This document shows, one piece after another, positions 21,257 to 64,000 of a stretch of DNA of 64,000 nt (positions within the stretch are counted from its first letter, which is position 1; every line of letters starts with the position of its first letter). The translations under genes were made by a program, and so were the position numbers. The notes below the pieces were generated by a model. That model had not been told where the DNA came from. It was given only the letters and a program-made list of their open reading frames with translations, and ran no database searches. Origin of the DNA: an uncultured Clostridium sp. GTDB taxonomy: Bacteria > Bacillota > Clostridia > TANB77 > CAG-508. The stretch lies in assembly GCA_964369695.1 (NCBI GenBank), contig CAYJGL010000001.1, positions 123,450 through 187,449 on the forward strand. Reading direction: 5' to 3'.

Positions 21257-24200
21257 TTATTTTATTTGTTTAGTATATATTTTCCATTCACCAATCGAAT
21301 GACCAGTTCCTCCTTCAGTTATAGAAGAATATCTACAAAGTCTATATCTATTATATTCATTGGTTATATTTTCTAAAGTAAATTCTTTAAGTACTAAATT
21401 TCCCCAAGTTTGAGGATCTGAAACATCATGAATTAAGTCCCAATTAACTCCATTATCTGGAGATGCATATAATCTCCACTTATTAAAACAAGGATGATTA
21501 TAATTGATTTGTTGAATAGAATATGAATATGGTTTAAACCGTATACTAAATTGAATATCTATGAATGGAGTATCCTTAATATTTGTCGGAGTATCCATAT
21601 GCCAACAATATGTATTTGATGTTGCTGTGTCAAATTTCTGTAAACTCCGATAAACCATATGTTGAGGATGTCCATGTTCAGCATTATATTCATACGTATA
21701 ACCATTTGGAGGAGTTTGTCCAGTCCAGGCAGGTAATATATCTTCTCCATTTTTATCATAAAAGAATATACTACCAAGAGTCTGACCTTCAATATCATAT
21801 ATCCAAATTTCATCATATTCAAAATCATAATCAAAATCTAATATCATTGAATGAGTTGCATCCCATTCTAATGAAGGTGCTATATTTAAAATTCCATCAG
21901 ATCCATCTCTTGTATAAGAATCATATAACAATACATATGTGTTTGTATTTGCAATTCTAGCTTTTAACTTATATTGATTGATAGTTTGTGCCAAATAACT
22001 CCCTCTTCTACAAATTTTAGCACTTTTAATAGATCTTGGGGATGGTATTGTTATTTTAAGAAATACAGTTTCTGAATTAAGACAGTTTCCTTGTTCATAC
22101 CAATCTTGATGATATGAACTAACATCTTTATTAAATGCTTTAAATGGATAATAATCAGTATTATACATGCTTGAAGCAGTTGCTCGTTGATAAATTTTCT
22201 GATCATTCCATTTTCCAGGAAGAGTATATGATAAAGTTTTATTAGTCATTTGACCTATAATATCATAAGCTTCATCCTGATATTCTGGTAATGGAACACC
22301 TTTAAATTCTAAAAATTTAGATTTTGATTGTTTTGTAAATATATTCCATTGACCAATAGCATGCCCTTCTCCACCTTCTAATGATGAATATCTTCTTAAT
22401 CTATACCTATTATATATATTTGTTATATTTTCTAATACAAAATTTTTAACTTCTAAATAATTCCAAGTTTGATGGTCAGAAACATCATGTATTAAGTCCC
22501 AATTAACTCCATTATCTGGAGATGCATATAATCTCCACTTATTAAAATTAGGATAATTTAAATCAGACTGTTGTAACGTATAAGAATACGGTTTAAATAA
22601 AGCATTAAAAATAATATCAATAAAAGGACTATATTCTGGCATTTTATCTTCTGAGTATGTTTTTGATCTTGTTGGTAATTGCCAAGATCTATTCGTTATA
22701 TGACCATCAGACAATATTCTCCAAGGTTTGAAATTAATATGATTTTGATAAGGATAACCTTCACATTCATATCCTTCTTCTAATTCCTCAGTAGTAAATC
22801 TTGGAAATATAGCCTTTCCATTATTATCATAAATATATATTCTGCTGATTAAACTGGTAGATATATCATATATATATATTTCATCAAATAATAAATCAGT
22901 AGGATTATACAATTCAAACTCTAAAGAGTCTTGGTTCCAAACTAAGTTTGAAGTTGTATTATTAAGTCCTTGATTTTCATAATTATTATATGTATCATAT
23001 AATAATATAAATTTAGAATATCCTAATGGTTTAGCTTTTACTCTAAATTGTCTTGGACTTCTATTATAATATGTTGATATTGTTGTTATCTTTAATTTTT
23101 TCAATATTTTAGGAATTGGTATTTTTAATCTAAAATAAGTGCAAGAATTATAAGTACCTAAACCATTTGCAGACCATAATGTATTATCATTATTATCAAA
23201 TGATTTAAATGGGGCAAAATCAATAAGATTAGCACCATCAATACTAGATGCTATAGTCTTTTGTTGAATAGGTAAATTTTCAAAATGACCATCAATAGTA
23301 TGTTCTAAAATATTAGAAAACATCATACCAATCATATTATAAATCTCTATAATAACTTCTGTACTTGGTGCTTTTGGATTAATATTTATTTGTTTAGTAA
23401 AAATCTTCCATTCACCAATAGAGAGATTAGAACCTCCTTCAGAAGTTGCATATCTTCTAAGTCTATATCTATTATACTCATTTGTTATATTTTCTAATAC
23501 AAATGTTTTTTCTACTAAATTTCCCCAAGTTTGAGGTTCTGAAACATCATGAATTAAGTCCCAATTAACTCCATTATCTGGAGATGCATATAATCTCCAC
23601 TTATTAAAACAAGGATGATTATAATTGATTTGTTGAATAGAATATGAATATGGTTTAAATCTTATATTAAATAAAATTTCTAGAAATGGTTCTACTTGAG
23701 AATTATGTGCATACCAACCACTATAAGATCCTGCGTTTGTAATTTTATTTAGAACGTTCCAAGTTTGCCAACCACTAGAACTGTACCATGGAAATATTTC
23801 ATATTCGTATCCAGATGGAGCAGATGAACTTGTCCATATAGGCAATATATCTTCATTATTTTCATCATAAAACCAAACACCAGTCATATGAGTAAATGAG
23901 ATGTCATAAAACCATATTTCATTAAATGATAAATCATATTCATTATCTAAATCAAATATTTTAAATGCTTCAGAATTTTCCCAAATTATACTAGGAGATA
24001 TTTCCAAAATACCATCCGAACCATCTGAAGTATATGAATCATACAATAGCACGAATTTATCTAAATCTGGACTAAATCCTTTAACTCTAAACTGAAGTAT
24101 TCCATCTTCAGAATAATTTGCTAATTGCTGTATTTTTATTTTTTTAAATATTTTTGGATTAGGCAATTTAACCCACATATATGCCGTTTCTTGAAAATGA

Positions 24201-25888
24201 CTTCCATTTCCAACATACCAATTTTGATAATAACTACTGACATCTTTATTAAATGCCTTAAACGATGCATAATTTGAATTATAAATACCAGAAGATAATG
24301 CTCTTTGGTGAATTTTTTCATTATTCCATTTCCCAGAAATATTATAAGAATGAGTATTTGAAGACATTTTTCCAATAATATCATAAGCATCTTCTATAAA
24401 TAATAAAACATCAACAGATATTGTAAAAGGATTGAAATTATAATAATATTTAATAAAATTAGAAATTAGACATTGTCCAATATATTGTATTATATGATCT
24501 TTTTCTCTTGGTTCTTTATACATAACTTTACCAGATTCTATATTAGAAACATATATATTAGAAGAAACGGCATTACTATTTGTTTGTTTAGTATATATTT
24601 TCCATTCACCAATCGAATGACCAGTTCCTCCTTCAGTTATAGAAGAATATCTACAAAGTCTATATCTATTATATTCATTGGTTATATTTTCTAAAGTAAA
24701 TTCTTTAAGTACTAAATTTCCCCAAGTTTGAGGATCTGAAACATCATGTATTAAGTCCCAATTAACTCCATTATCTGGAGATGCATATAGTCTCCACTTA
24801 TTAAAACAAGGATGATTATGATTAACTTGTTGAATTGAATAAGAATGTGGTTTAAACATTATACTAAATTGAATATCTAGGAATGGAGTATTCTTAATAT
24901 TTGTTGGAGTATCCATATGCCAACAATATGTATTTGATGTTGCTGTGTCAAATTTCTGTAAACTCCGATAAACCATATGTTGAGGATGTCCATGTTCAGC
25001 ATTATATTCATACGTATAACCATTTGGAGGAGTTTGTCCAGTCCAGGCAGGTAATATATCTTCTCCATTTTTATCATAAAAGAATATACTACCAAGAGTC
25101 TGACCTTCAATATCATATATCCAAATTTCATCATATTCAAAATCATAATCAAAATCTAATATCATTGAATGAGTTGCATCCCATTCTAATGAAGGTGCTA
25201 TATTTAAAATTCCATCAGATCCATCTCTTGTATAAGAATCATATAACAATACATATGTGTTTGTATTTGCAATTCTAGCTTTTAACTTATATTGATTGAT
25301 AGTTTGTGCCAAATAACTCCCTCTTCTACAAATTTTAGCACTTTTAATAGATCTTGGGGATGGTATTGTTATTTTAAGAAATACAGTTTCTGAATTAAGA
25401 CAGTTTCCTTGTTCATACCAATCTTGATGATATGAACTGACATCTTTATTAAATGCTTTAAATGGATAATAATTAGTACTATACATACTTGAAGCAGTTG
25501 CTCGTTGATAAATTTTCCGATCATCCCATTTTCCAGAAATAGTATGTTCTAAAGTTTTATTAGTCATTTGACCTATAATATCATACTCTTCTTCTGATTC
25601 TGGAGGTGTTCCCTCTTCAGTAGTAACAATATATCCAAATAATAGCAAGTCACAACGACTATTTGAAGATTTATTTTCTAAAGAAACAGCTCGTGCTGGC
25701 ATTTTTTCTGGATCAGATGATAATGCTTTCATCCATCGATTCAAAGGTATATCAAAATATAATATATCTCCTATAATAACAGATTCTCCAACTACACCAT
25801 GTGTATATAATCCTGAAGTATCATTTTCTGCTGTTATATTAAAATAATTATTGGACCCTTTTGTTAAAATATCAGAAATAAATTTCAT
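21257..25888 (-). CDS. Giant tail fibre / receptor-binding protein with four double discoidin-like units
   Basis: About 1543 aa. FNKWRLYASPDNGVNWDLIHDVS occurs four times, each followed by NEYNRYRL(R/C)RY...GG.G..IGEWKI(Y/F)TKQ. First and fourth units are nearly identical. Track start 25894 is TTG; ATG at 25888 follows GAGGA. Confidence 0.55.
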   Translation of the reverse strand: MKFISDILTKGSNNYFNITAENDTSGLYTHGVVGESVIIGDILYFDIPLNRWMKALSSDPEKMPARAVSLENKSSNSRCDLLLFGYIVTTEEGTPPESEEEYDIIGQMTNKTLEHTISGKWDDRKIYQRATASSMYSTNYYPFKAFNKDVSSYHQDWYEQGNCLNSETVFLKITIPSPRSIKSAKICRRGSYLAQTINQYKLKARIANTNTYVLLYDSYTRDGSDGILNIAPSLEWDATHSMILDFDYDFEYDEIWIYDIEGQTLGSIFFYDKNGEDILPAWTGQTPPNGYTYEYNAEHGHPQHMVYRSLQKFDTATSNTYCWHMDTPTNIKNTPFLDIQFSIMFKPHSYSIQQVNHNHPCFNKWRLYASPDNGVNWDLIHDVSDPQTWGNLVLKEFTLENITNEYNRYRLCRYSSITEGGTGHSIGEWKIYTKQTNSNAVSSNIYVSNIESGKVMYKEPREKDHIIQYIGQCLISNFIKYYYNFNPFTISVDVLLFIEDAYDIIGKMSSNTHSYNISGKWNNEKIHQRALSSGIYNSNYASFKAFNKDVSSYYQNWYVGNGSHFQETAYMWVKLPNPKIFKKIKIQQLANYSEDGILQFRVKGFSPDLDKFVLLYDSYTSDGSDGILEISPSIIWENSEAFKIFDLDNEYDLSFNEIWFYDISFTHMTGVWFYDENNEDILPIWTSSSAPSGYEYEIFPWYSSSGWQTWNVLNKITNAGSYSGWYAHNSQVEPFLEILFNIRFKPYSYSIQQINYNHPCFNKWRLYASPDNGVNWDLIHDVSEPQTWGNLVEKTFVLENITNEYNRYRLRRYATSEGGSNLSIGEWKIFTKQININPKAPSTEVIIEIYNMIGMMFSNILEHTIDGHFENLPIQQKTIASSIDGANLIDFAPFKSFDNNDNTLWSANGLGTYNSCTYFRLKIPIPKILKKLKITTISTYYNRSPRQFRVKAKPLGYSKFILLYDTYNNYENQGLNNTTSNLVWNQDSLEFELYNPTDLLFDEIYIYDISTSLISRIYIYDNNGKAIFPRFTTEELEEGYECEGYPYQNHINFKPWRILSDGHITNRSWQLPTRSKTYSEDKMPEYSPFIDIIFNALFKPYSYTLQQSDLNYPNFNKWRLYASPDNGVNWDLIHDVSDHQTWNYLEVKNFVLENITNIYNRYRLRRYSSLEGGEGHAIGQWNIFTKQSKSKFLEFKGVPLPEYQDEAYDIIGQMTNKTLSYTLPGKWNDQKIYQRATASSMYNTDYYPFKAFNKDVSSYHQDWYEQGNCLNSETVFLKITIPSPRSIKSAKICRRGSYLAQTINQYKLKARIANTNTYVLLYDSYTRDGSDGILNIAPSLEWDATHSMILDFDYDFEYDEIWIYDIEGQTLGSIFFYDKNGEDILPAWTGQTPPNGYTYEYNAEHGHPQHMVYRSLQKFDTATSNTYCWHMDTPTNIKDTPFIDIQFSIRFKPYSYSIQQINYNHPCFNKWRLYASPDNGVNWDLIHDVSDPQTWGNLVLKEFTLENITNEYNRYRLCRYSSITEGGTGHSIGEWKIYTKQIK
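21268..22275. repeat. About 1-kb intragenic direct repeat, copy 1 (fourth fibre unit)
   Basis: Near-identical to 24586-25593 at a constant offset of 3318 nt. The track shadow ORFs at 21559/24877 and 21583/24901 are almost identical. Confidence 0.85.
24586..25593. repeat. About 1-kb intragenic direct repeat, copy 2 (first fibre unit)
   Basis: See copy 1 (21268-22275). Confidence 0.85.
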
Positions 25889-25890
25889 AA

Positions 25891-26340
25891 TCAATCCTCA
25901 ATCATCTGTAAAACAAGTGGACTAAAATCAAAATATCCAACATTAGTTCCTAATGCTGTTCCTATTACTTGTTTAAATGAATTAGTAACAGGAACAATAT
26001 CTGTAGCTAAACCCAATTCAGTATCAGAAACGTAAATATAATTAGATGTAAAATTCCAATTATCATTTCTTATTGTTCCATTTTGTAATAATTTAATTGT
26101 AGAATCTACTAAACCATTTTCACAGGATATTGCTTTACAAGGTAATGTTTCTTGAATATTTGATTTAGCTAATTTCCATTTATTTAATTTAAAATCAAAA
26201 TATAAACATTGTCCAAAATAAACATCTTCTCCTAATAAGCCATCAACTATAAATCCACTATATTCAAGATTATTTGGAGCAACATTTACTCTTATTTTTG
26301 AATTAGGACCTAATGATTGTAAACTTCCTATTACTTTCAT
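25891..26340 (-). CDS. Small fibre-module protein sharing the fibre N-terminal anchor domain
   Basis: 149 aa. GEDVYFGQCLYFDFKLNKWKLAKSN..LPCKAIS aligns with GESVIIGDILYFDIPLNRWMKALSS..MPARAVS and GEDVKKGDLLYYDDNLKKYMKALSS..MPCRAIA of the two giant genes. Confidence 0.7.
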   Translation of the reverse strand: MKVIGSLQSLGPNSKIRVNVAPNNLEYSGFIVDGLLGEDVYFGQCLYFDFKLNKWKLAKSNIQETLPCKAISCENGLVDSTIKLLQNGTIRNDNWNFTSNYIYVSDTELGLATDIVPVTNSFKQVIGTALGTNVGYFDFSPLVLQMIED

Positions 26341-45472: not shown

Positions 45473-46504
45473 TTATTTATAAAAATAATTTTCTAATATA
45501 TCATCATCCCACATATTTATCTGACATGTATATGGTCCGTAACCAATATGAGTTGGTTTTCTCAAATCAGGATTATTTTTAAATAAATATAAATCTTCTT
45601 CTCTCATGTAATTTATAAAATTTAAAAATATATAATCTGGTTCTAAAAATTCTATCATTCTTTTATATTGCATTTTACTAAATGTAAAAATTCTTCTAAC
45701 TTTATTAGTAACAGTAGTATATTCTTTTTCTAATTTCAAATCATCCCAAGATAATTCTATACTATCATCATAAGTTGGGCCACTCGTTCCTATAATTTTA
45801 CCATTTTTATCTGTAGGATTAGCAACTCTAATAGGATATGTTCGAACTGTTGTTATACACGATCCCATATATTTTGGATGCAAACACAAATCTGCCAATA
45901 CAGCACTTGGTATAACATCAACAGAAGTGCAATATGGATAAGATAATCCACTATTAATACCCAAATCAAATCCTTGACCAGTTTCAACTAATATATTTAA
46001 ATCTAAATCTAAATATTCTTTTAAATTAAATGATTTTTGTATAAATCTTTTTAAAGCTGGAGTATTCTCTGCTAATGGATTGGTTCTTAAAATTTTACTT
46101 GAACGAGCAGAACCACTACCAGATAATGTACTTCCAATATTTGTAAGAATATTATTTTCTGCTAGTTTATCATTATTTTCAATAACGGCAATTCTTGGAT
46201 GAAGTATGATTCTATCTTCATCTATATCAAATTTTTTAATTTCATGGAGAAATAAATCAACATCAATAACACATCCAGCAGACATGTATATTGTTGATCT
46301 TGGTTGTATAATTGCAGTTACTGGAATTAGTTTTGTTATATATTTTATATCATTATAATAAAAAGTATGTCCAGCATTTGGAGATAATCTTCCTACAACA
46401 ATATCAATATGATAATTTTCAGCTATATATGCTGCCATTAAACCTTTTCCTGTACTTCCAAATTGGCCATCAATAATCATATTTGCTTTGCCTGATTGGA
46501 TCAT
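45473..46504 (-). CDS. Adenylosuccinate synthetase family protein, short archaeal/PurZ-like form
   Basis: DGQFGSTGKG (PurA GTQWGDEGKG), SPNAGHT (NAGHT), GSTLSGSGSARSSK (GTTGRGIGPAYEDK), VETGQGFDLGINSGLSYPYCTS ([22 protein letters not shown]), TTVTNKVRR (GATTGRRRR). 343 aa. Track start 46528 is TTG; ATG at 46504. Confidence 0.7.
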   Translation of the reverse strand: MIQSGKANMIIDGQFGSTGKGLMAAYIAENYHIDIVVGRLSPNAGHTFYYNDIKYITKLIPVTAIIQPRSTIYMSAGCVIDVDLFLHEIKKFDIDEDRIILHPRIAVIENNDKLAENNILTNIGSTLSGSGSARSSKILRTNPLAENTPALKRFIQKSFNLKEYLDLDLNILVETGQGFDLGINSGLSYPYCTSVDVIPSAVLADLCLHPKYMGSCITTVRTYPIRVANPTDKNGKIIGTSGPTYDDSIELSWDDLKLEKEYTTVTNKVRRIFTFSKMQYKRMIEFLEPDYIFLNFINYMREEDLYLFKNNPDLRKPTHIGYGPYTCQINMWDDDILENYFYK

Positions 46505-46528
46505 TGATTTATTTCTCCATTTGATCAA

Positions 46529-55979: not shown

Positions 55980-56031
55980 TTTTTAGAAGATGAAAAATAT
56001 ATTATAATTTTTTCATCTTCTAAAAATTTTT
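55980..56031. terminator. Bidirectional rho-independent terminator at a convergent junction
   Basis: 18-bp stem TTTTTAGAAGATGAAAAA (55980-55997) / TTTTTCATCTTCTAAAAA (56009-56026), followed by TTTTTATTT. Confidence 0.8.
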
Positions 56032-56257
56032 ATTTCATTCTAAATCCCATTTGAGGAAGTTGTCCAGTTGGAGTAGGAGATGCTGCTGGATTTCTATAAA
56101 TATTTTGAGTCTGTGACCTTTGATTTATATTTGATGGTCTTTGAGTTGGCGATCCACTTCTTGCTACTTGAGAATATCCTCCACCAGCAGAAGGTTGCCA
56201 TAATCTTTCAAATAATTCAGTAGAAAAACTTTCAAAAACCAAATCATTAATAGTCAT
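56030..56257 (-). CDS. N-terminally tagged small protein (MTINDLVFESF...)
   Basis: 75 aa, Pro/Gln/Ser-rich remainder. Confidence 0.65.
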   Translation of the reverse strand: MTINDLVFESFSTELFERLWQPSAGGGYSQVARSGSPTQRPSNINQRSQTQNIYRNPAASPTPTGQLPQMGFRMK

Positions 56258-56271
56258 ATTTTACTCCTTTA

Positions 56272-56724
56272 TTAATATTGTCTATTTGAATCATATTCTT
56301 TATTCTTAAAAAAATCAGAAATACCATTTTTAGCGTTAGTCCCTTTATTATACAAACGTTGAGCACCATAATGAGCTCCACCAGTTATAGCTCCTCCAAC
56401 TCCTGCTCCAACCATCATTGATTTTTTAAATGAATTTTTAGAATTTAGATCATTTAATCTATCCCTAAAGTAATTTTGAGCTTCGCCGGATTGAGCTGAA
56501 TTCAATTTATTTTCTAAACTTCTCCTTCTAAAAAAATTAACAACTTTACTTCCTATTCCAAAAGTAAGCCCAGATGCTAGTCCTCCTAATCCAGCACCTA
56601 CCATTGCTGTCTTAGAAGTTGCAGCATTAGCAGCAGAACCTAATCTACTTGTTCCTCCAGAAGATTGTGGAGGAGATTGTTCATTTTCAGTAAATGAATT
56701 TAGAACTAATAAATTTATATTCAT
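56272..56724 (-). CDS. N-terminally tagged glycine-zipper protein (MNINLLVLNSF...)
   Basis: 150 aa, GGAGAATTAA before ATG. Two internal repeats: MVGAGLGGLASGLTFGIG and MVGAGVGGAITGGAHYG. Confidence 0.75.
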   Translation of the reverse strand: MNINLLVLNSFTENEQSPPQSSGGTSRLGSAANAATSKTAMVGAGLGGLASGLTFGIGSKVVNFFRRRSLENKLNSAQSGEAQNYFRDRLNDLNSKNSFKKSMMVGAGVGGAITGGAHYGAQRLYNKGTNAKNGISDFFKNKEYDSNRQY

Positions 56725-56749
56725 TTAATTCTCCTTTCTTTTATATTTA

Positions 56750-56767
56750 TTATATCTATTTTATTTT
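56750..56767 (-). promoter_or_regulatory. Promoter-like motif AAAATAAAATAGATATAA
   Basis: Read on the minus strand, 25 nt upstream of ATG 56724. Confidence 0.35.
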
Positions 56768-56812
56768 GTATAATTTTAAAGGATATAATTAAGATAAAAA
56801 TTTATTTTATAT

Positions 56813-56834
56813 AAAAATAATATAGATATAAAAT
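56813..56834 (+). promoter_or_regulatory. Promoter-like motif AAAATAATATAGATATAAAAT
   Basis: 31 nt upstream of ATG 56863. Second, oppositely oriented copy in the same divergent gap. Confidence 0.4.
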
Positions 56835-56862
56835 ATAAAATAAAATTAGAAAGGATAATTTG

Positions 56863-57660
56863 ATGAATATGACTACTATTAAAAATTCAACTATTTCTTA
56901 TTTAAATCATAATTTAAAAAATTCTAAAATAATAGATTTTAGAAATATTAAATATGATGAATACAACATTATAACAGAAGATAATATCGAAGGAGATATT
57001 AAACGTTTATTAAATTTATTATATGGAAATACATTTACTGAAAATTATTTGAAAAATGAAGATTTTTTTGTTTCATATACAGATAAACTTCATAATAATC
57101 AAAAAAAGAATTTAGGAAAAAATAATTATCATAATATGGATAGTGATTTTTTTAAAGTACTTCCTATTTATAAATTTAATAATACTATGATAGACAATAT
57201 AGTATTAATGGATAATGATGATTGTTATTGGATAGTTAAAGAATATAGATTTGAATCAAACTATGATCAATTTATTTTATTTGATTTAAATCAAGATAAC
57301 AGACAGTTAATGTTTCAAAGAGGAGTATATTGGTTACAAGAAAATACAAATGATGAATTTATGTTTTATCCTTTAAATATCACATTTCATAATACTTACA
57401 AATACGAATTACACCCATATCCATTTAAAACATTATTATGGATGTTAAATAGAGTTATAAAAGCATATAATCAAATAAATATATTTAATAGTAATCAAAA
57501 AGTATTAGATAAAGATAATGACATCATTATAGTAAATAATAAATTAAAAGATGTTTTAGAAGAAACAGAGGTTATATCTGTATCTGGTCATTGGAGAACT
57601 ATTCAAAATGAAAATGTTTGGATAGATAAACACACAAGAAGTAAAGCTTTAAAAAAATAA
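56863..57660 (+). CDS. Hypothetical protein (265 aa)
   Basis: First gene of the plus block, with a promoter-like motif upstream and a terminator downstream. The track start is TTG 56860. Confidence 0.75.
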   Translation: MNMTTIKNSTISYLNHNLKNSKIIDFRNIKYDEYNIITEDNIEGDIKRLLNLLYGNTFTENYLKNEDFFVSYTDKLHNNQKKNLGKNNYHNMDSDFFKVLPIYKFNNTMIDNIVLMDNDDCYWIVKEYRFESNYDQFILFDLNQDNRQLMFQRGVYWLQENTNDEFMFYPLNITFHNTYKYELHPYPFKTLLWMLNRVIKAYNQINIFNSNQKVLDKDNDIIIVNNKLKDVLEETEVISVSGHWRTIQNENVWIDKHTRSKALKK

Positions 57661-57664
57661 AAAA

Positions 57665-57700
57665 ATAACAGGCTATTTAAAAAATAGTCTGTTATTTTTA
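57665..57700 (+). terminator. Rho-independent terminator
   Basis: 13-bp stem ATAACAGGCTATT (57665-57677) / AATAGTCTGTTAT (57684-57696) with one G-U pair, then TTTT. Confidence 0.7.
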
Positions 57701-57709
57701 AAGGAGATT

Positions 57710-58063
57710 ATGAAAATTATAACAGATATATTTGAAGGAATAATATATGATGAATTGGAATATTCTAAATTAATTTCTAAAAGAATCATTCATTCAACAT
57801 TATATCATAATATAACTTTAAAAAGTCTTAAATTTAAATTAGGACTTTTTAATTTTATTATTGAAATAGATTATATAATAATAGCAGAAAAGTCTTATAT
57901 TTCAAAGATAAAAACTATAAATATTGATTTAAACATTATTAAAAATCATAATTTAAAAAATGATAAATATATAAAAAAACTAATAACTATAAGATTTAAT
58001 CAAATTTTACAACAACGACTAGATTTAATTCAAATATATGAATTATGTAAATTAGAAAGATAA
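57710..58063 (+). CDS. Tandem paralog family member A
   Basis: AAAGGAG SD. C-terminus ...QQRLDLIQIYELCKLER (divergent family motif). Confidence 0.7.
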   Translation: MKIITDIFEGIIYDELEYSKLISKRIIHSTLYHNITLKSLKFKLGLFNFIIEIDYIIIAEKSYISKIKTINIDLNIIKNHNLKNDKYIKKLITIRFNQILQQRLDLIQIYELCKLER

Positions 58064-58073
58064 GGATTATTTT

Positions 58074-58472
58074 ATGATATTACCATTGTTAAAAGACTGT
58101 ATAATGAAAGATGTTGATTATAAAAAATATTTTTTAGAATTTAAATTAAGAAAAATAATGGACAATACGTATGCTGTACAGTTCTCTCTTTACCCAATAT
58201 ATTATAAGAATGATTTTATAATAACGACTATAATTGTTCATTATTTTTTAATATCAAATGTGTTAGCTATCGAAAATGTTTATTCATCTAATCAAACAAG
58301 ACATATAAAACTAGAGGATGAAATCAGTTCTTGTTTTAAGTCAAATCATATAGATATTAAAACTAAAAAAGAAATGGTTTTAAAATTGATAGAAGACAGA
58401 ATTCTTTATTATTTAATAATAAATGATAAAGTAACTTATGAAATAACTAAATTATCTTATAATATAGATTAG
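58074..58472 (+). CDS. Tandem paralog family member B
   Basis: C-terminus ...ILYYLIINDKVTYEITKLSYNID. Confidence 0.7.
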   Translation: MILPLLKDCIMKDVDYKKYFLEFKLRKIMDNTYAVQFSLYPIYYKNDFIITTIIVHYFLISNVLAIENVYSSNQTRHIKLEDEISSCFKSNHIDIKTKKEMVLKLIEDRILYYLIINDKVTYEITKLSYNID

Positions 58473-58482
58473 GAGGTATTAA

Positions 58483-58887
58483 TTGGAATTTAATATAAAT
58501 GAATTATTACATATGATAATATATTCTAAAAAATTCAATTTACCTATTATAAAAATTATTCGTGTTCAAATATTTAGTAATTTAGATCATATCATTTTTG
58601 AAATACATGAAGAGAATCTAATAACAAAATTCAATATATATTATTCTTTACAAGATACTAAAATAATAAGTTATCTTAACGTATTATCAGAATGCAAAAA
58701 TGTTAATTTTTTCTCAAAATATGAAAATGCTTTTCAAAAACATTCTTCAAAAGAATTTCTATTCAATAAAGAGGGTATAAATGAAAGAACAATAGAAATC
58801 AATAATGTGATTAATGAAACTATTGAAAATTATTTCAAGAATAATATGGAGAAATATGAAACTTTAAAATTATTATGGAAAATATAA
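58483..58887 (+). CDS. Tandem paralog family member C
   Basis: TTG start 6 nt after AGGAGG. C-terminus ...IENYFKNNMEKYETLKLLWKI. Confidence 0.7.
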   Translation: MEFNINELLHMIIYSKKFNLPIIKIIRVQIFSNLDHIIFEIHEENLITKFNIYYSLQDTKIISYLNVLSECKNVNFFSKYENAFQKHSSKEFLFNKEGINERTIEINNVINETIENYFKNNMEKYETLKLLWKI

Positions 58888-58888
58888 T

Positions 58889-59296
58889 ATGTTTTTTACA
58901 CATTTGTATAATGAATTTTTAAATTTGCATTTTGATTTTCAAAAAATATTCAAACAACACTTGCATACAACAACGAAATTAAAGAATAATGAAACAGTGT
59001 ATAGTATTAAAGGATTTACAAAAAAATTAAGAAATAAATCTTATTATATATGTGCATATGGCTTTAAAGGACATATAAAAGAGCACTATTATTTTGATAA
59101 ATGTTTTAGTTTTCCATTTCATGATATAACAGAAGAAATATATATATTATTTAGTGAAGATATATTATCTCCTAAATTTATTTTGAAAGGTCACCAGGTA
59201 CCTCTATCAAAAATCAAAAATATAATTACAGAACTAATAAAATTATATGATGAACAAAATTATTATAAATTCAAATTATTAGAATGGATTGATTAA
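58889..59296 (+). CDS. Tandem paralog family member D
   Basis: C-terminus ...ELIKLYDEQNYYKFKLLEWID. Confidence 0.7.
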   Translation: MFFTHLYNEFLNLHFDFQKIFKQHLHTTTKLKNNETVYSIKGFTKKLRNKSYYICAYGFKGHIKEHYYFDKCFSFPFHDITEEIYILFSEDILSPKFILKGHQVPLSKIKNIITELIKLYDEQNYYKFKLLEWID

Positions 59297-59703
59297 TGGA
59301 AATTCCCTTGACTTTTTTCAGACTATATTTCGATAATTTACATGAAAATCCAATAGATATTAAAAGTTTATTTAAAAGAATTGTGCGCTATGATATGAAA
59401 CCATATAATAAACACTTTATATATATATTCTTAAGCCATAAATTAAAAAATGATAATTTATTAAGAATTAAAGTTTTTGTATCAAAAAGAAATAATCAAC
59501 CTGAATTTATTAATTGTTATGAAGTTGATAAAAAATTAAAAATTGGAAAAAATAATAAATCAACAATACATAATTTAAAGAAACTGAATATACCAAAAGA
59601 ATATGAAAAAATGATTATATTAAGAAATGAAGATATTATATTAGATTTAATCAAATTATATAATCCTAAAATATATGAAGAAATAATACTATTAACATGT
59701 TGA
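59296..59703 (+). CDS. Tandem paralog family member E
   Basis: TAATG overlap. Internal LKIGKNNKSTIHNLKKLNIP. C-terminus ...ILDLIKLYNPKIYEEIILLTC. Confidence 0.7.
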   Translation: MEIPLTFFRLYFDNLHENPIDIKSLFKRIVRYDMKPYNKHFIYIFLSHKLKNDNLLRIKVFVSKRNNQPEFINCYEVDKKLKIGKNNKSTIHNLKKLNIPKEYEKMIILRNEDIILDLIKLYNPKIYEEIILLTC

Positions 59704-60053
59704 TTGATTTATTAAAAGCTATTGTATTTCAAAACTATAGAGATAATTGCATAATCATTAAAAATTTATATGTTAAAGATAAATATATAGACAATAATTC
59801 TGGATATATTTATTTAATACTAAAAAACAAAACTATAGATTTAAATATTCAAATAAATTTTCGAGTTTTTGGAACAAGTATAACTATAATATCTTATAAA
59901 TGGATTAGATTAAAAAGAAAAGGACAAATAGTATTTGAAACTAAAAAAATAATTGGACCTAATAAAAAAGGAAACATGTCCCTTGAATTAAATAAAATAA
60001 TAGATTCTGAATTTAGTAATATTAGTGAAATGATCAAATTATTAAACACATAG
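59697..60053 (+). CDS. Tandem paralog family member F (most divergent)
   Basis: C-terminus ...EFSNISEMIKLLNT. Same size class and position. Confidence 0.6.
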   Translation: MLIDLLKAIVFQNYRDNCIIIKNLYVKDKYIDNNSGYIYLILKNKTIDLNIQINFRVFGTSITIISYKWIRLKRKGQIVFETKKIIGPNKKGNMSLELNKIIDSEFSNISEMIKLLNT

Positions 60054-60065
60054 TAGGATTTTATA

Positions 60066-60446
60066 ATGATACATAAACTATTTGAATTATACTTTGAAAA
60101 TCCAGATGTATATAAATCTGTATTTCAATCTGTATTTCAAAATATATTAAAACATGATGAAAGAGAATATCTTTTCATAATCAATGATATAAAAACTAAT
60201 GGAACTGTGCGTATAAAAGCAAATATAAGGTTTCAAAATACAATCTCATTAAATGGGAAATGGGTATCGAATGATTTAAAAATAGGAAAAACAAATAAAT
60301 CAACTCAAAGATATCTAAAGAAGTGGGATTTGCCAGATCATATTAATAAAGATATTAAATCAATAAACATATACTCTTTTTTAATGAATTATCTTTCAGA
60401 AAATCATATTGAAATATATGAGACTTTAAAATTACAATTAAGCTAA
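60066..60446 (+). CDS. Tandem paralog family member G
   Basis: Internal LKIGKTNKSTQRYLKKWDLP. C-terminus ...YLSENHIEIYETLKLQLS. Lies directly upstream of the Doc-like gene. Confidence 0.7.
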   Translation: MIHKLFELYFENPDVYKSVFQSVFQNILKHDEREYLFIINDIKTNGTVRIKANIRFQNTISLNGKWVSNDLKIGKTNKSTQRYLKKWDLPDHINKDIKSINIYSFLMNYLSENHIEIYETLKLQLS

Positions 60447-60465
60447 TTTAATTAAGGATTATTAA

Positions 60466-60933
60466 ATGTATAAATTTATAAATTCACATAAGATCGGTTT
60501 AGATTATCTATCAAAGTATGATGCAAGGTTAATAGAAGAACCGACAAAAGAAATTAAATTAGAATACCCAAATAGCAACAAATATATAAAATATAAAGAT
60601 CTTCAATTTATAAATTTCGATATGATTTTTCAATTATATTATAATTTATTTCATATTAGGCTAAATGATAATAATAATAAAATACATTGTTGTTTAAATA
60701 GACCTTTATGTTTATTATCATATTCAGAAATGGATATAGATGAAATATCTAGAATTGTAGGAGAAAGTATAACTATGATTCATCCATTTCCAGATGGTAA
60801 TAAAAGAATGGCATATTTATGTACAAATTTATTTCTTAAAATAAATAATTTAAATTTATATAAAGATCATATAAAATTGTGCAATATGATAATTTATTAT
60901 TCATCAAATCAACGCGAAAAAATCAGGAATTAA
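60466..60933 (+). CDS. Doc-type Fic-fold protein (death-on-curing toxin-like kinase)
   Basis: HPFPDGNKRMAYLCTNLFL matches the Doc variant of the Fic motif H-x-F-x-(D/N)-(A/G)-N-K-R (P1 Doc HIFNDANKRTAL). 155 aa, AAGGA SD. Confidence 0.7.
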   Translation: MYKFINSHKIGLDYLSKYDARLIEEPTKEIKLEYPNSNKYIKYKDLQFINFDMIFQLYYNLFHIRLNDNNNKIHCCLNRPLCLLSYSEMDIDEISRIVGESITMIHPFPDGNKRMAYLCTNLFLKINNLNLYKDHIKLCNMIIYYSSNQREKIRN

Positions 60934-60934
60934 T

Positions 60935-61348
60935 ATGTATAACTACACAAATCATAAAAGACATGTTCAATTAAATATATTAATAAAACAATGTATGTTT
61001 GAAGAATATAATTATAAAGATATGTTTGAAACATTTGAAAGAATGGATAGCTTTAATGGAAATAACATTATTCGAATAAAATTATTGCCAGTTTTTATAA
61101 AACATTTAAACTGTACTGTTCAAACAATTGTTCAAGGAATATATGAACGAAAAACTATAAAATTTTATCAGATAAAGTCTTATAATGTCAAAGATTTAAA
61201 AACAGAAATAGATGATATACATAAAGCAAATAATAAAAAATTATTTGGGACTAAAATTACCAATGAAAAAGTATGGTTAAGAATATTAGACATACTTAAA
61301 ATAACAAATCATGAAAAATATGAATATTTTAAGATATTAACATTATAA
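60935..61348 (+). CDS. Tandem paralog family member H
   Basis: Starts 1 nt after the Doc stop. C-terminus ...LRILDILKITNHEKYEYFKILTL. Terminator follows. Confidence 0.7.
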   Translation: MYNYTNHKRHVQLNILIKQCMFEEYNYKDMFETFERMDSFNGNNIIRIKLLPVFIKHLNCTVQTIVQGIYERKTIKFYQIKSYNVKDLKTEIDDIHKANNKKLFGTKITNEKVWLRILDILKITNHEKYEYFKILTL

Positions 61349-61361
61349 TTTTAATTATAAA

Positions 61362-61400
61362 AATTGTTCTGAATATAATTTATTCAGAACAATTTTATTT
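61362..61400 (+). terminator. Rho-independent terminator inside the paralog array
   Basis: 14-bp perfect stem AATTGTTCTGAATA (61362-61375) / TATTCAGAACAATT (61381-61394), then TTATTT. Confidence 0.75.
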
Positions 61401-61415
61401 AAGAAGGTCAGAAAA

Positions 61416-61940
61416 ATGAAATATTCTTATTTTATATTAGGAGAGATGGTTGAAAAAGATAGTACTCTTAATATATTTGAAAAAGTAGAAAATATATCTT
61501 CAAATGTAAAACATGAAATATATTCAGACATCAATTATCAAACATATAAAATTATTACTAAACGAATAGATAATACAGAAATAATAATAACTCTTAATTA
61601 TTCAAATGATCCAGAAAGTATGGTGATATTGAGTATGAAGACAAATCAGAATATCTTTAAAAGATTTTTTTCTCTTTTTAAAAAAGAAGATAAATTAACT
61701 ATACTTGAAAAAATATTTAAATTAGAATATAAAATATATATTAAGAAATTAGAAGATAAGTATCCTAAAATATATAAAATGTTATTTAAAAAATATAAGA
61801 ACAGAGATAATTATAATAAACGCGAATCATATTATGATCTTAGATTTAAACGGATTATTATATTTAATAATATTATAGTAACTTTATTAAAACAATATGA
61901 TCCAGCACAATATGAAATAATATGTTTATTAGATTGTTAG
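61416..61940 (+). CDS. Tandem paralog family member I
   Basis: TLNIFEKVENIS near the N-terminus. C-terminus ...IVTLLKQYDPAQYEIICLLDC. Confidence 0.7.
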   Translation: MKYSYFILGEMVEKDSTLNIFEKVENISSNVKHEIYSDINYQTYKIITKRIDNTEIIITLNYSNDPESMVILSMKTNQNIFKRFFSLFKKEDKLTILEKIFKLEYKIYIKKLEDKYPKIYKMLFKKYKNRDNYNKRESYYDLRFKRIIIFNNIIVTLLKQYDPAQYEIICLLDC

Positions 61941-61953
61941 ACAAGGACATTAT

Positions 61954-62418
61954 ATGAATTTTCTATATTTAAAACAAATTATTGATTTATCAATAAATAG
62001 AAACTTAAACATATTTGAAAATATTTCAATTGATAAAAATGAAGATATATATACATTAAATATAGTTACAAAAAAATTAGACGATGATTTTATAAAACTA
62101 ATTATTTGTCGAAACTATATTGAAGATATCATATATGTTAAATCATTCAAAAATAATACAAATATTATAAAAAGAATAATCAGAAATGTATTTAAATATG
62201 AAATGAATAAAGATATTCAAAAGTTATTATCATATACTCCTCAATTTAATTATATTACAAAAGAAGCAGAAAATTTTATTTATCCATTTTTAACAAAAAA
62301 AATGATTTACAAAAAGACACATCAAAATATTCTAATACAATTAGAAATCATTTTAAAAAATCTTTTAAAAAAATATAATGTAGTAGAATTTGAAAAATTA
62401 AATTTACTATATTCATAA
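61954..62418 (+). CDS. Tandem paralog family member J
   Basis: NLNIFENIS. C-terminus ...LKNLLKKYNVVEFEKLNLLYS. Confidence 0.7.
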   Translation: MNFLYLKQIIDLSINRNLNIFENISIDKNEDIYTLNIVTKKLDDDFIKLIICRNYIEDIIYVKSFKNNTNIIKRIIRNVFKYEMNKDIQKLLSYTPQFNYITKEAENFIYPFLTKKMIYKKTHQNILIQLEIILKNLLKKYNVVEFEKLNLLYS

Positions 62419-62428
62419 TAGGCAAAAT

Positions 62429-62857
62429 ATGAAATCAGGAGACTATACTGGTATAATATTAAATAAATATAATAATGGTATTGATTTAAATATTTTTAAG
62501 AAATTTAAACAAACTACTATAAATGATTGGTATGAATGTTCAATTATAACAAAACAAATAAACAATTATGAATTAAAAATTAAATGTGATGTTCATAATC
62601 AACACCATTGGGTTATATTAAAAAGTGTAAAATATAATAATTTTATAATAACAATACTTAAAAAATTATATCAAAATCATAAATGGACATATGAAGATAA
62701 TCTTATAGAATTTTTTAAATCAGAAAGTATTTTAACAAAATACAAATATAGAACAATATTTGAAGATGCCTTATATAGTCATTTAGATATTATTTTATTA
62801 GATCTATTAAAGATATATAATCCTATAGAGTTTAAAAAAATAAAATCATTACAATAA
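62429..62857 (+). CDS. Tandem paralog family member K
   Basis: DLNIFKKFK. C-terminus ...LLDLLKIYNPIEFKKIKSLQ. Confidence 0.7.
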   Translation: MKSGDYTGIILNKYNNGIDLNIFKKFKQTTINDWYECSIITKQINNYELKIKCDVHNQHHWVILKSVKYNNFIITILKKLYQNHKWTYEDNLIEFFKSESILTKYKYRTIFEDALYSHLDIILLDLLKIYNPIEFKKIKSLQ

Positions 62858-62865
62858 AGGACATC

Positions 62866-63378
62866 ATGTTTAAATTCATAAATATAATCCACAAATCTAT
62901 ACCAAATTCAGACAATGTTTATAATTTAAATTTATTCGAATATATTAAATTTACTAAAATTAACACATTTAATAAAATATATAAAACATATGAAACATAT
63001 GAAGTTTCATTAGTAACAAAACAAATATATAGAAAAAAATTAAAATTAGAATATTATATTCTTTTAAATGATTTTAATATATTAAGAATTACGGATGTTG
63101 AAATTATAAATGGACATTCTTTATTTTTAAAAATTGTCAATTTATTTAAAAAAAAGAAATATGATAATATTGACTACATATATTCACATTTTAAATTATA
63201 TAATCAGATTAATAAATTATCCAATTTAAATAAAAAATTAAATATTAAAGATCAAAATGCAACAAATATAAATTTAAGTACTATAGATGAATTAATAAAA
63301 AAAGATTATAACAATATTCTTGAAGAATTGTTAATAAGATATAATCCTATTGAATATGAAATTTTAAAATTAAGTTAA
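62866..63378 (+). CDS. Tandem paralog family member L
   Basis: NLNLFEYIK. C-terminus ...LEELLIRYNPIEYEILKLS. Confidence 0.7.
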   Translation: MFKFINIIHKSIPNSDNVYNLNLFEYIKFTKINTFNKIYKTYETYEVSLVTKQIYRKKLKLEYYILLNDFNILRITDVEIINGHSLFLKIVNLFKKKKYDNIDYIYSHFKLYNQINKLSNLNKKLNIKDQNATNINLSTIDELIKKDYNNILEELLIRYNPIEYEILKLS

Positions 63379-63390
63379 AGGACTAGTTAT

Positions 63391-63942
63391 ATGAAAACAT
63401 TGGATTTTGAAAATAAAAGATCTTCTACTCTTGAAATATTTGAACATATTAGTTTAAATATAATAAATAATAATGGTATTAATCTAAATTTATTTGAAGA
63501 AATAAAATATTCAAAAGGAACAACCAATTGGTTTATTATCGATTTTAAAACAAAGAGATTATATGAAAAACAAATATTATTAAATTATCATTTTAATGCA
63601 TTAAAACCAAGCATTGCATTATACAATATAAAAGTAATATATAAAAATCACAGTTTATATAAAATTAAAAGATTATTATTTCAAAAAGAATGGGATATAA
63701 TAGATTATGCAGAACATCACTTTAATGCATATTCTAGATTAATATCATTAACACCTCTAGAAAGTATGGTTACACCATCATTTAAATTTAAACAAAATAT
63801 CAACGGAATACAAAAAACAGTATATTATGAAAACCCAGACAATGCATTGGAACTAACTATGGAAAACATAAATCTTATTTTAATAGAATTATTAAAACAA
63901 TACAATCCTATAGAATATGAAATTTTAAAATTATCAAATTAA
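63391..63942 (+). CDS. Tandem paralog family member M
   Basis: NLNLFEEIK. C-terminus ...LIELLKQYNPIEYEILKLSN. Confidence 0.7.
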   Translation: MKTLDFENKRSSTLEIFEHISLNIINNNGINLNLFEEIKYSKGTTNWFIIDFKTKRLYEKQILLNYHFNALKPSIALYNIKVIYKNHSLYKIKRLLFQKEWDIIDYAEHHFNAYSRLISLTPLESMVTPSFKFKQNINGIQKTVYYENPDNALELTMENINLILIELLKQYNPIEYEILKLSN

Positions 63943-63959
63943 ATAATTAAGATAAACAT

Positions 63960-64000
63960 ATGAAACTAATTTATACGTATAATATAATCCAATTATTACT
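63960..64000 (+). CDS. Start of a further ORF (MKLIYTYNIIQLL...), probably the next array member; truncated by window edge
   Basis: ATG at 63960, open to the window end, with the same spacing as the preceding array genes. Confidence 0.4.
   Translation, partial: MKLIYTYNIIQLL

Follow-up and report, generated by a model that had tools for sequence, protein, structure and literature searches.

A divergent Doc-family gene of an N-terminally extended clade in a large phage genome, apparently without a recognisable adjacent antitoxin gene

The stretch of DNA analysed here, hereafter the window, comprises 64,000 nucleotides (nt) of a metagenomic contig assigned to an uncultured Clostridium sp. (CAYJGL010000001.1, positions 123,450 to 187,449; assembly GCA_964369695.1). 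Close to its right end lies a 155-codon open reading frame (ORF) whose product is, by profile match and predicted fold, a divergent protein of the Doc subclass of the Fic fold. The gene is embedded in a run of small genes on the + strand that extends from a strand-switch region near 56725–56860 to the end of the window, and it is flanked by two of these array genes, G upstream and H downstream. An original prediction, made from the letters and their translations, described it as an orphan Doc-type toxin gene within an array of paralogs, with no recognisable Phd antitoxin, and offered two explanations: a host translation shut-off effector of a lytic phage, or a toxin neutralised by one of the flanking array proteins. 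We followed up this prediction with profile searches, structure prediction and a comparison with control Doc loci. The coordinates of the features are collected in Table 1.

The Doc ORF starts with ATG, stops with TAA and contains the peptide HPFPDGNKRMAYLCTNLFL in its translation. A Shine-Dalgarno-like site precedes its start codon, and the array genes around it have similar GGA-containing upstream sites. The sequence HPFPDGNKR agrees with the Doc motif HxFx(D/N)(A/G)NKR, as quoted in PMC13034048, wherever the motif specifies a residue. Translated in all six frames, the window yields a single match to the pattern H.F.[DN][AG]NKR, where composition alone would lead one to expect 1.4e-4. The original prediction had also noted a Lys where the AMPylating Fic motif has its second Gly, and the absence of the terminal Arg of that motif; both are confirmed, with Lys113 and Tyr117 read at these positions and M-A-Y following R114. 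The motif residues H, P, D, G, N and K are invariant in an alignment of the clade to which the protein belongs (see below). With Lys in its motif, the protein most probably acts as a protein kinase in the manner of P1 Doc. The gene has a GC content of 20.5% (13.5% at third codon positions), the same as its neighbours, and since its composition cannot be told from theirs, it is not a recent unadapted insert. Its 155-codon frame stays open in stop-rich DNA of ~20% GC, which argues that the gene is maintained.

Profile searches and structure prediction indicated that the assignment to the Fic/Doc family is not a fortuitous motif match. The Pfam Fic/Doc profile (PF02661) matched the Doc protein with 35.7 bits (cut-off 24) over profile positions 2–93 of 93, and PHROG 577, ‘Doc-like toxin’, matched residues 39–146 with an E-value of 2.8e-11. 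The NCBIfam profile TIGR01550 (DOC_P1) gave 34.6 bits (E = 1.8e-8), slightly under its cut-off of 38.65, a shortfall that fits a divergent member of the Doc family. Among solved structures, the Doc chain 9vzc_A was recovered with an E-value of 7e-4 from the single sequence and 2.3e-11 from a profile of the clade, and the same clade profile matched P1 Doc (3k33_A) with an E-value of 1.9e-8.

An AlphaFold2 model built on a 77-sequence alignment (mean predicted local distance difference test, pLDDT, 87.7; predicted template modelling score, pTM, 0.85) supports an all-alpha Doc-type fold. P1 Doc chains were the best Foldseek matches in the PDB: the top one, 3kh2_A, had a probability of 1.00, a template modelling (TM) score of 0.72 normalised to Doc and a root-mean-square deviation (rmsd) of 2.7 Å, and the chains together ranged over TM 0.69–0.73 and rmsd 2.2–2.8 Å across about 109 columns. 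A fold search of BFVD recovered a few viral Fido-domain proteins (best TM 0.59) and nothing informative on the N-terminal part of the protein. PADLOC yielded weak partial matches centred on the Fic motif, SoFic among them, and no evidence of a defence-system context for Doc. The degree of divergence is illustrated by a HMMER search of 1.84 billion cluster representatives, which returned only 49 proteins at E ≤ 1e-3, the best of them 31% identical to the query. Overall, sequence and model alike identify the window protein as a divergent member of the Doc subclass with a Fic fold, its catalytic motif being intact.

Sequence comparison further places it in a rare clade of N-terminally extended Docs, rather than among standard Docs that have lost Phd. 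Members of this clade have an extra N-terminal two-helix segment of about 35–40 residues, and their catalytic His lies at position ~101–106, compared with ~66–72 in canonical Docs. In an alignment of 11 proteins the extension follows the pattern G-L-x-x-L-x-x-Y-D, with G11, L12, L15, Y18 and D19 invariant. Single-sequence HMMER aligned the clade members P0002, P0014 and P0017 to the window protein from residue 4–9 on, and a leave-one-out profile of the 10 other clade members scored 12.2 bits on residues 6–27, a score reached by 0 of 2000 shuffled sequences. Residues 1–20 of the extension were modelled with a pLDDT of 92–95. The G-L-x-x-L-x-x-Y-D segment lies ~85 residues ahead of the catalytic His and is found in none of the 80 canonical loci described below. 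These alignments and the model point to an extension that is genuine and clade-specific. The phage protein additionally carries a loop insert of ~18 residues (about 28–45), predicted with low confidence.

The extension was also compared with known domains. It has no sequence match in the PDB, contains no Fic inhibitory motif (S/T)xxxE(G/N) and bears no likeness to antitoxin C-termini, and its identification as a known domain was rejected. The clade is missing from the best 80 Doc loci of GTDB representative genomes, which are canonical Docs only, and no published description of an N-extended, antitoxin-free Doc clade was found in the literature searched.

The search for an antitoxin covered the Pfam profiles of the Phd/YefM, MazE/AbrB, Xre, RHH/RelB and YhfG families, with limits of E ≤ 0.1–1 for the array proteins and E ≤ 0.01 for 37 further small ORFs from the window. 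None of these families was detected in G, in H, in the other array proteins or in the 37 small ORFs, and the predicted absence of a Phd/YefM-like ORF is thus borne out within the window. Near Doc, there was no hidden or plausible small ORF on either strand, no ToxI-type tandem repeat and no Rfam match, and on these grounds an RNA or small-peptide antitoxin next to the gene was rejected.

As a positive control we used the best 80 canonical Doc loci from GTDB representative genomes, for which 78 upstream ORFs were scored. A recognisable antitoxin was located directly upstream of Doc in 58 of the 78, demonstrating that the method finds antitoxins where they are present. The upstream ORF was ~75–120 amino acids (aa) long in nearly all of these loci and mostly overlapped the Doc start by 4 nt. 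By family (loci L008–L086), 55 of the 78 upstream ORFs were MazE/AbrB-type, three more were RelB, RHH or Rv0623-like, and none was Phd/YefM. The commonest upstream partner of canonical Doc in this sample is of the MazE/AbrB type, rather than the Phd/YefM type.

In contrast to the canonical loci, the six bacterial contexts of clade members that we inspected (L001–L006, Table 1) had no Pfam antitoxin match among their upstream ORFs (0/6 versus 58/78; Fisher p = 6e-4, or 2e-4 with the window included). As far as these sequences tell, the N-extended Doc clade apparently has no recognisable adjacent antitoxin gene in the contexts examined. In two of them the gene directly upstream of the clade Doc has an RF-1 domain and is release-factor or ArfB-like (L003, 47–637, with a gap of 61 nt to Doc; L004, 3–188). 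The pairing of an RF-1-domain neighbour with an N-extended Doc, seen in two related contigs, may reflect a translation-related association.

These control and clade loci also bear on the most conventional explanation, namely that the protein is an ordinary toxin whose antidote is encoded elsewhere on the 264-kb genome, serving plasmid-like or pseudolysogenic maintenance or superinfection exclusion. In its favour, the type case P1 is a phage too and relies on Doc to be maintained (PMC2686095), the window covers 64 of 264 kb, and the Doc-like genes that a clade-member query finds in GenBank phages reside mostly in temperate Streptococcus and Mycobacterium prophages. We nevertheless regard this explanation as quite unlikely: 58 of the 78 control loci have the antitoxin directly beside the toxin, the 64-kb window showed no gene for lysogeny or partition, and the N-extended clade is without recognisable partners in bacterial chromosomes as well.

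The same observations can be accommodated if the Doc fold has been retained in a non-toxic or repurposed protein, such as a regulatory enzyme that differs in substrate or chemistry, a decoy titrating out the Doc antitoxins or the defence toxin-antitoxin systems of the host, or a catalytically quiet scaffold. Bacterial clade members stand alone between housekeeping genes and have no antidote, a situation easier to tolerate if the protein is non-toxic, and the window protein is divergent, with few and distant relatives and a score under the TIGR01550 cut-off. Outside the motif, K72, I73, C75 and C76 replace the LLxSA of the canonical Doc consensus. However, P1 Doc deviates at the same upstream positions, so these changes are no sign of inactivity, and every residue that the motif specifies is preserved, the catalytic His as well as the Doc-specific Lys. 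A repurposed protein of this kind is possible, though we consider it unlikely.

Table 1. Features of the Doc locus in the window and contexts of clade members in bacterial contigs.
Feature	Sequence	Position	Strand	Details
Probable transcription unit of ten small genes (A–G, Doc, H)	Window	57710–61348	+	Gaps of −7 to 19 nt; bracketed by hairpins
Terminator-like hairpin with U-run, upstream boundary of the Doc unit	Window	57661–57699	+	−18.2 kcal/mol, z −5.3; 0/200 shuffles as stable
Array gene G	Window	60066–60446	+	126 aa; stop 19 nt ahead of Doc start; paralog of E
Shine-Dalgarno-like AAGGA	Window	60454–60458	+	About 7–8 nt ahead of the Doc ATG
Doc-family (Fic-fold) kinase-like gene, N-extended clade	Window	60466–60933	+	155 aa; ORF call, profile matches, AlphaFold2 model
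Clade-specific N-terminal extension, residues 1–27	Window	60466–60546	+	Predicted helices 2–7 and 9–19; clade alignments
Catalytic motif H106-P-F-P-D-G-N-K-R114	Window	60781–60807	+	Direct sequence reading; fits HxFx(D/N)(A/G)NKR
Array gene H	Window	60935–61348	+	137 aa; start 1 nt past Doc stop
Terminator-like hairpin with U-run straight after H, downstream boundary	Window	61360–61396	+	−19.6 kcal/mol, z −5.2; 0/200 shuffles as stable
Clade Doc-like gene	L001			Beside housekeeping genes; unassigned 59-aa ORF (149–328) ends 2 nt upstream
Clade Doc-like gene	L002			After a Band_7 gene
Clade Doc-like gene	L003			After an RF-1-domain gene
Clade Doc-like gene	L004			After an RF-1-domain gene
Clade Doc-like gene	L005			Start overlapped by 8 nt by unassigned ORF 2–331
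Clade Doc-like gene	L006			Without credible neighbour

The spacing of the Doc gene in the array is as originally predicted, with 19 nt between G and Doc and 1 nt between Doc and H; the other gaps of the ten-gene unit are comparable (−7 to 13 nt). Long intergenic gaps occur only twice in the array (49 and 67 nt), and each holds a terminator-like hairpin, very stable and AT-rich, that a consensus terminator scan missed owing to its GC-poor stem. The array is probably divided into transcription units by these hairpins. The prediction that Doc belongs to the same strand-run as the array agrees with this layout, since the hairpins bracket A–G, Doc and H as one likely unit, and co-transcription of Doc with the array is plausible from the arrangement of the genes.

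The description of the neighbours as a paralog array stands in part. Paralogy is statistically backed, by pairwise and profile tests, for E and G and for the group I-J-K-L-M, whereas A–D, F and H share just two short terminal motifs, an N-terminal NxFE-like one and a C-terminal [IL]LxxLLKxYNPxxYExxKL-like one. Gene H resembles the array weakly and through these motifs only, the resemblance being significant neither by phmmer nor by hmmsearch, and its AlphaFold2 model is poor (pLDDT 57, pTM 0.32), with confidence limited to a C-terminal helical hairpin at residues 107–136. Gene G is paralogous to E (59296–59703; phmmer E = 1e-10), which has no Doc beside it, and showed no antitoxin match in Pfam, PHROG or PADLOC. 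The array proteins had no Pfam match of note, and no homologues of the family were found outside its own contig among 5.8 billion proteins or in IMG/VR. Within gene G, an in-frame 12-nt tandem duplication (60107–60140, +; 2.8 copies) encodes SVFQSVFQ and points to slippage or divergence still under way in the array genes. Ahead of the array, at the strand-switch region, lie two small ORFs (56272–56724 and 56030–56257, both on the − strand), the first of them Gly/Ala/Ser-rich with repeated GAGxGG-like stretches and no assigned family.

This neighbourhood could conceal a new toxin-antitoxin pair, in which a Doc antidote of a new type would be either H, translationally coupled to Doc at a distance of 1 nt, or G, placed upstream where canonical loci have their antitoxin. 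The tight spacing on both sides is compatible with such a pair, and Doc and H are the final two genes before a strong terminator-like hairpin; moreover, Doc pairs with the unrelated antitoxin families AbrB/MazE, Xre, YhfG and PHD (PMC2701414), and the confidently predicted C-terminal helical hairpin common to array members could bind it. We find the idea improbable all the same. The spacing is equally tight across the array and so not specific to Doc, there are at least 13 array genes to one Doc, and E, the clear paralog of G, has no adjacent Doc. No array protein contains an antitoxin domain, and the array profile compared with MazE-type Doc antitoxins gave an hhalign probability of 0.1%. At 126 and 137 aa and slightly more basic than acidic, G and H are untypical of small antitoxins. 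The array family has no relatives elsewhere and hence offers no co-occurrence evidence, and other N-extended clade members have no such neighbour. The earlier suggestion that G or H is a dedicated Doc antidote, which would have given the whole array family a function, therefore finds no support in the paralogy of E, the 13:1 gene ratio, the antitoxin searches or the hhalign comparison.

The window, with ~24% GC throughout, represents 64 kb of a 263,784-bp contig. Its predicted proteins include matches to a virion structural protein, a tail protein, an endolysin, a UvsX-like recombinase and a phage-type helicase whose nearest GenBank relatives come from jumbo Rhizobium phages (35% identity). 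Judged by this gene content, the source is a large phage without a close sequenced relative. Megablast of positions 56000–64000 against GenBank phages gave no match, tblastn of the Doc protein against 50,697 GenBank phage records gave none, and neither the Doc protein, nor the array profile, nor the helicase had a match in IMG/VR. With a clade member as the query, tblastn recovered 34 GenBank phage records, mostly from Streptococcus and Mycobacterium prophages along with Gordonia and Pseudomonas phages; none of these matches covers the extension, and none of the records is longer than 111 kb.

Several other ORFs of this phage deserve mention. On the − strand, 33796–34317 gave a full-length match to adenylylsulfate (APS) kinase (Pfam PF01583, E = 2.8e-26), an unusual phage auxiliary gene, and adjoins a 462-aa ORF with a methyltransferase-like PHROG match. 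The ORF at 45473–46528 (−) is adenylosuccinate-synthetase-like (Pfam PF00709, 1.2e-22), with PurZ-type phrog_1211 as its best PHROG (6e-55); it may point to a modified adenine or purine pathway in this genome of 76% A+T. A 1545-aa ORF (21257–25894, −) contains four tandem units of ~1.06–1.2 kb, 69–96% identical over 300 nt, plus a second family in three copies, which suggests a modular, recently duplicated large protein.

Our preferred interpretation, to which we would give about an even chance, is that the gene encodes a divergent Doc-family host-modifying kinase that is delivered by the phage and needs no separate antidote. The phage would express the enzyme during infection, and the enzyme would phosphorylate a host protein, by analogy EF-Tu, and so damp host translation. 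An antidote could be unneeded because the infected cell is expendable. Alternatively, the N-terminal extension might provide in cis the two core helices that Phd-type antitoxins provide in trans, acting in fold completion or in active-site gating. According to Kinch et al. on the Garcia-Pino structure (PMC2686095), the Fic core includes a first and a permuted helix that Doc does not have and that Phd contributes by ‘fold complementation’; from the two extra conserved N-terminal helices and the missing partner gene we infer that the extension may have such an in-cis role.

The genetic setting can be read along the same lines. Doc is the second-to-last of ten genes in an operon that consists of small phage-specific genes and lies next to a strand-switch region, and this layout is that of an accessory or host-takeover cluster. 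Doc-like toxins are placed by PHROGs in the category ‘moron, auxiliary metabolic gene and host takeover’. During lytic infection by P1vir, phosphorylation can be detected at T383 of TufA, the known site of Doc action on EF-Tu (PMC13645617).

A number of points weigh against a host-modifying kinase without an antidote. The clade contexts are short contigs of 1.1–7.6 kb, and three of them (L001, L003 and L004) come from related genomes of one European Nucleotide Archive (ENA) study, which leaves an effective sample of ~4. The unassigned ORFs upstream of Doc in L005 and L001 may be unrecognised antitoxins, and an antitoxin acting in trans could sit in the ~200 kb of the contig outside the window. 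The extension has neither the Fic inhibitory motif nor any PDB sequence match, and it showed no relation to the profile of the MazE-type Doc antitoxins (hhalign probability 0.7%). The Doc protein itself scores slightly under the curated TIGR01550 cut-off and is without the last C-terminal helix of most clade members, although P0018, P0050 and P0052 are equally short. Finally, a complete block of EF-Tu would also hurt translation of the phage, so dosage, timing or substrate may differ from what the analogy implies.

A stronger version of the preferred reading would hold that N-extended Docs form an antitoxin-independent class of Fic-fold kinases, in which the N-terminal helix pair replaces the C-terminal helix of Phd/MazE in cis, and that a jumbo phage has recruited one of them as an early host-modifying kinase. 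This version is speculative, and we would not expect it to hold in full. Bolder still would be to regard the neighbouring ORFan proteins, with their shared C-terminal hairpin and variable bodies, as interchangeable partners or adaptors of the Doc kinase.

Doc is a textbook toxin restrained by a partner that also completes its fold, and both solitary toxins and non-Phd partners of Doc are well known. Phage Doc-like genes, too, are already an annotated category (PHROG 577). What is new is a rare N-extended and apparently antitoxin-free Doc clade, with no GenBank phage record in the collection matching the window protein. If our interpretation is correct, a solitary clade with N-terminal helices of its own would show another way to build or regulate a Doc kinase and would give structural and biochemical studies a Doc that is single-chain by nature. 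A Fic-fold kinase would then join the short list of large-phage enzymes that rewire the host, of which the T7 kinase is the classic case, and a block of otherwise unassignable small genes would gain one functional foothold. Should the protein prove to be an ordinary toxin whose antidote is encoded at a distance, the finding would be routine.

Among known systems, the closest in fold is P1 Doc of the phd-doc module (PDB 3K33, 3KH2, 3DD7), which is likewise phage-encoded and has the same motif and an all-helical core. The two proteins are ~18% identical. Unlike P1 Doc, the window protein carries an N-terminal segment and an 18-residue loop insert, so that its catalytic His is residue 106 instead of 66, and it is missing the last C-terminal helix; it has no adjacent phd and belongs to a ten-gene ORFan operon, whereas P1 Doc is encoded in a two-gene autoregulated operon. 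The best sequence match with a solved structure is the Doc of Enterococcus faecalis (9VZC; PMC13034048), aligned over residues 40–148. That protein is chromosomal, has no N-terminal extension and is encoded next to a partner that the window protein does not have, an AbrB/MazE-like ‘Phd’ with a C-terminal helix that enters Doc and brings about dimerisation (PMC13034048). The match to PHROG 577 similarly leaves out the N-terminal extension.

Class II and III Fic proteins (C. difficile Fic, 4X2C, and FICD) offer a conceptual parallel, as they carry a regulatory helix in cis on the Fic core. They differ in that they are poor secondary Foldseek matches (TM 0.40–0.43, rmsd 6–7 Å), and in that the window protein is without (S/T)xxxE(G/N) and has a Doc-type NKR motif, not the AMPylase-type NGRxxR. 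The T7 kinase Gp0.7 is unrelated in fold and, as PMC13645617 reports, much more promiscuous than P1 Doc. The analogy with Gp0.7 is functional only: it is a phage kinase that is made in infection without an antidote and modifies host proteins.

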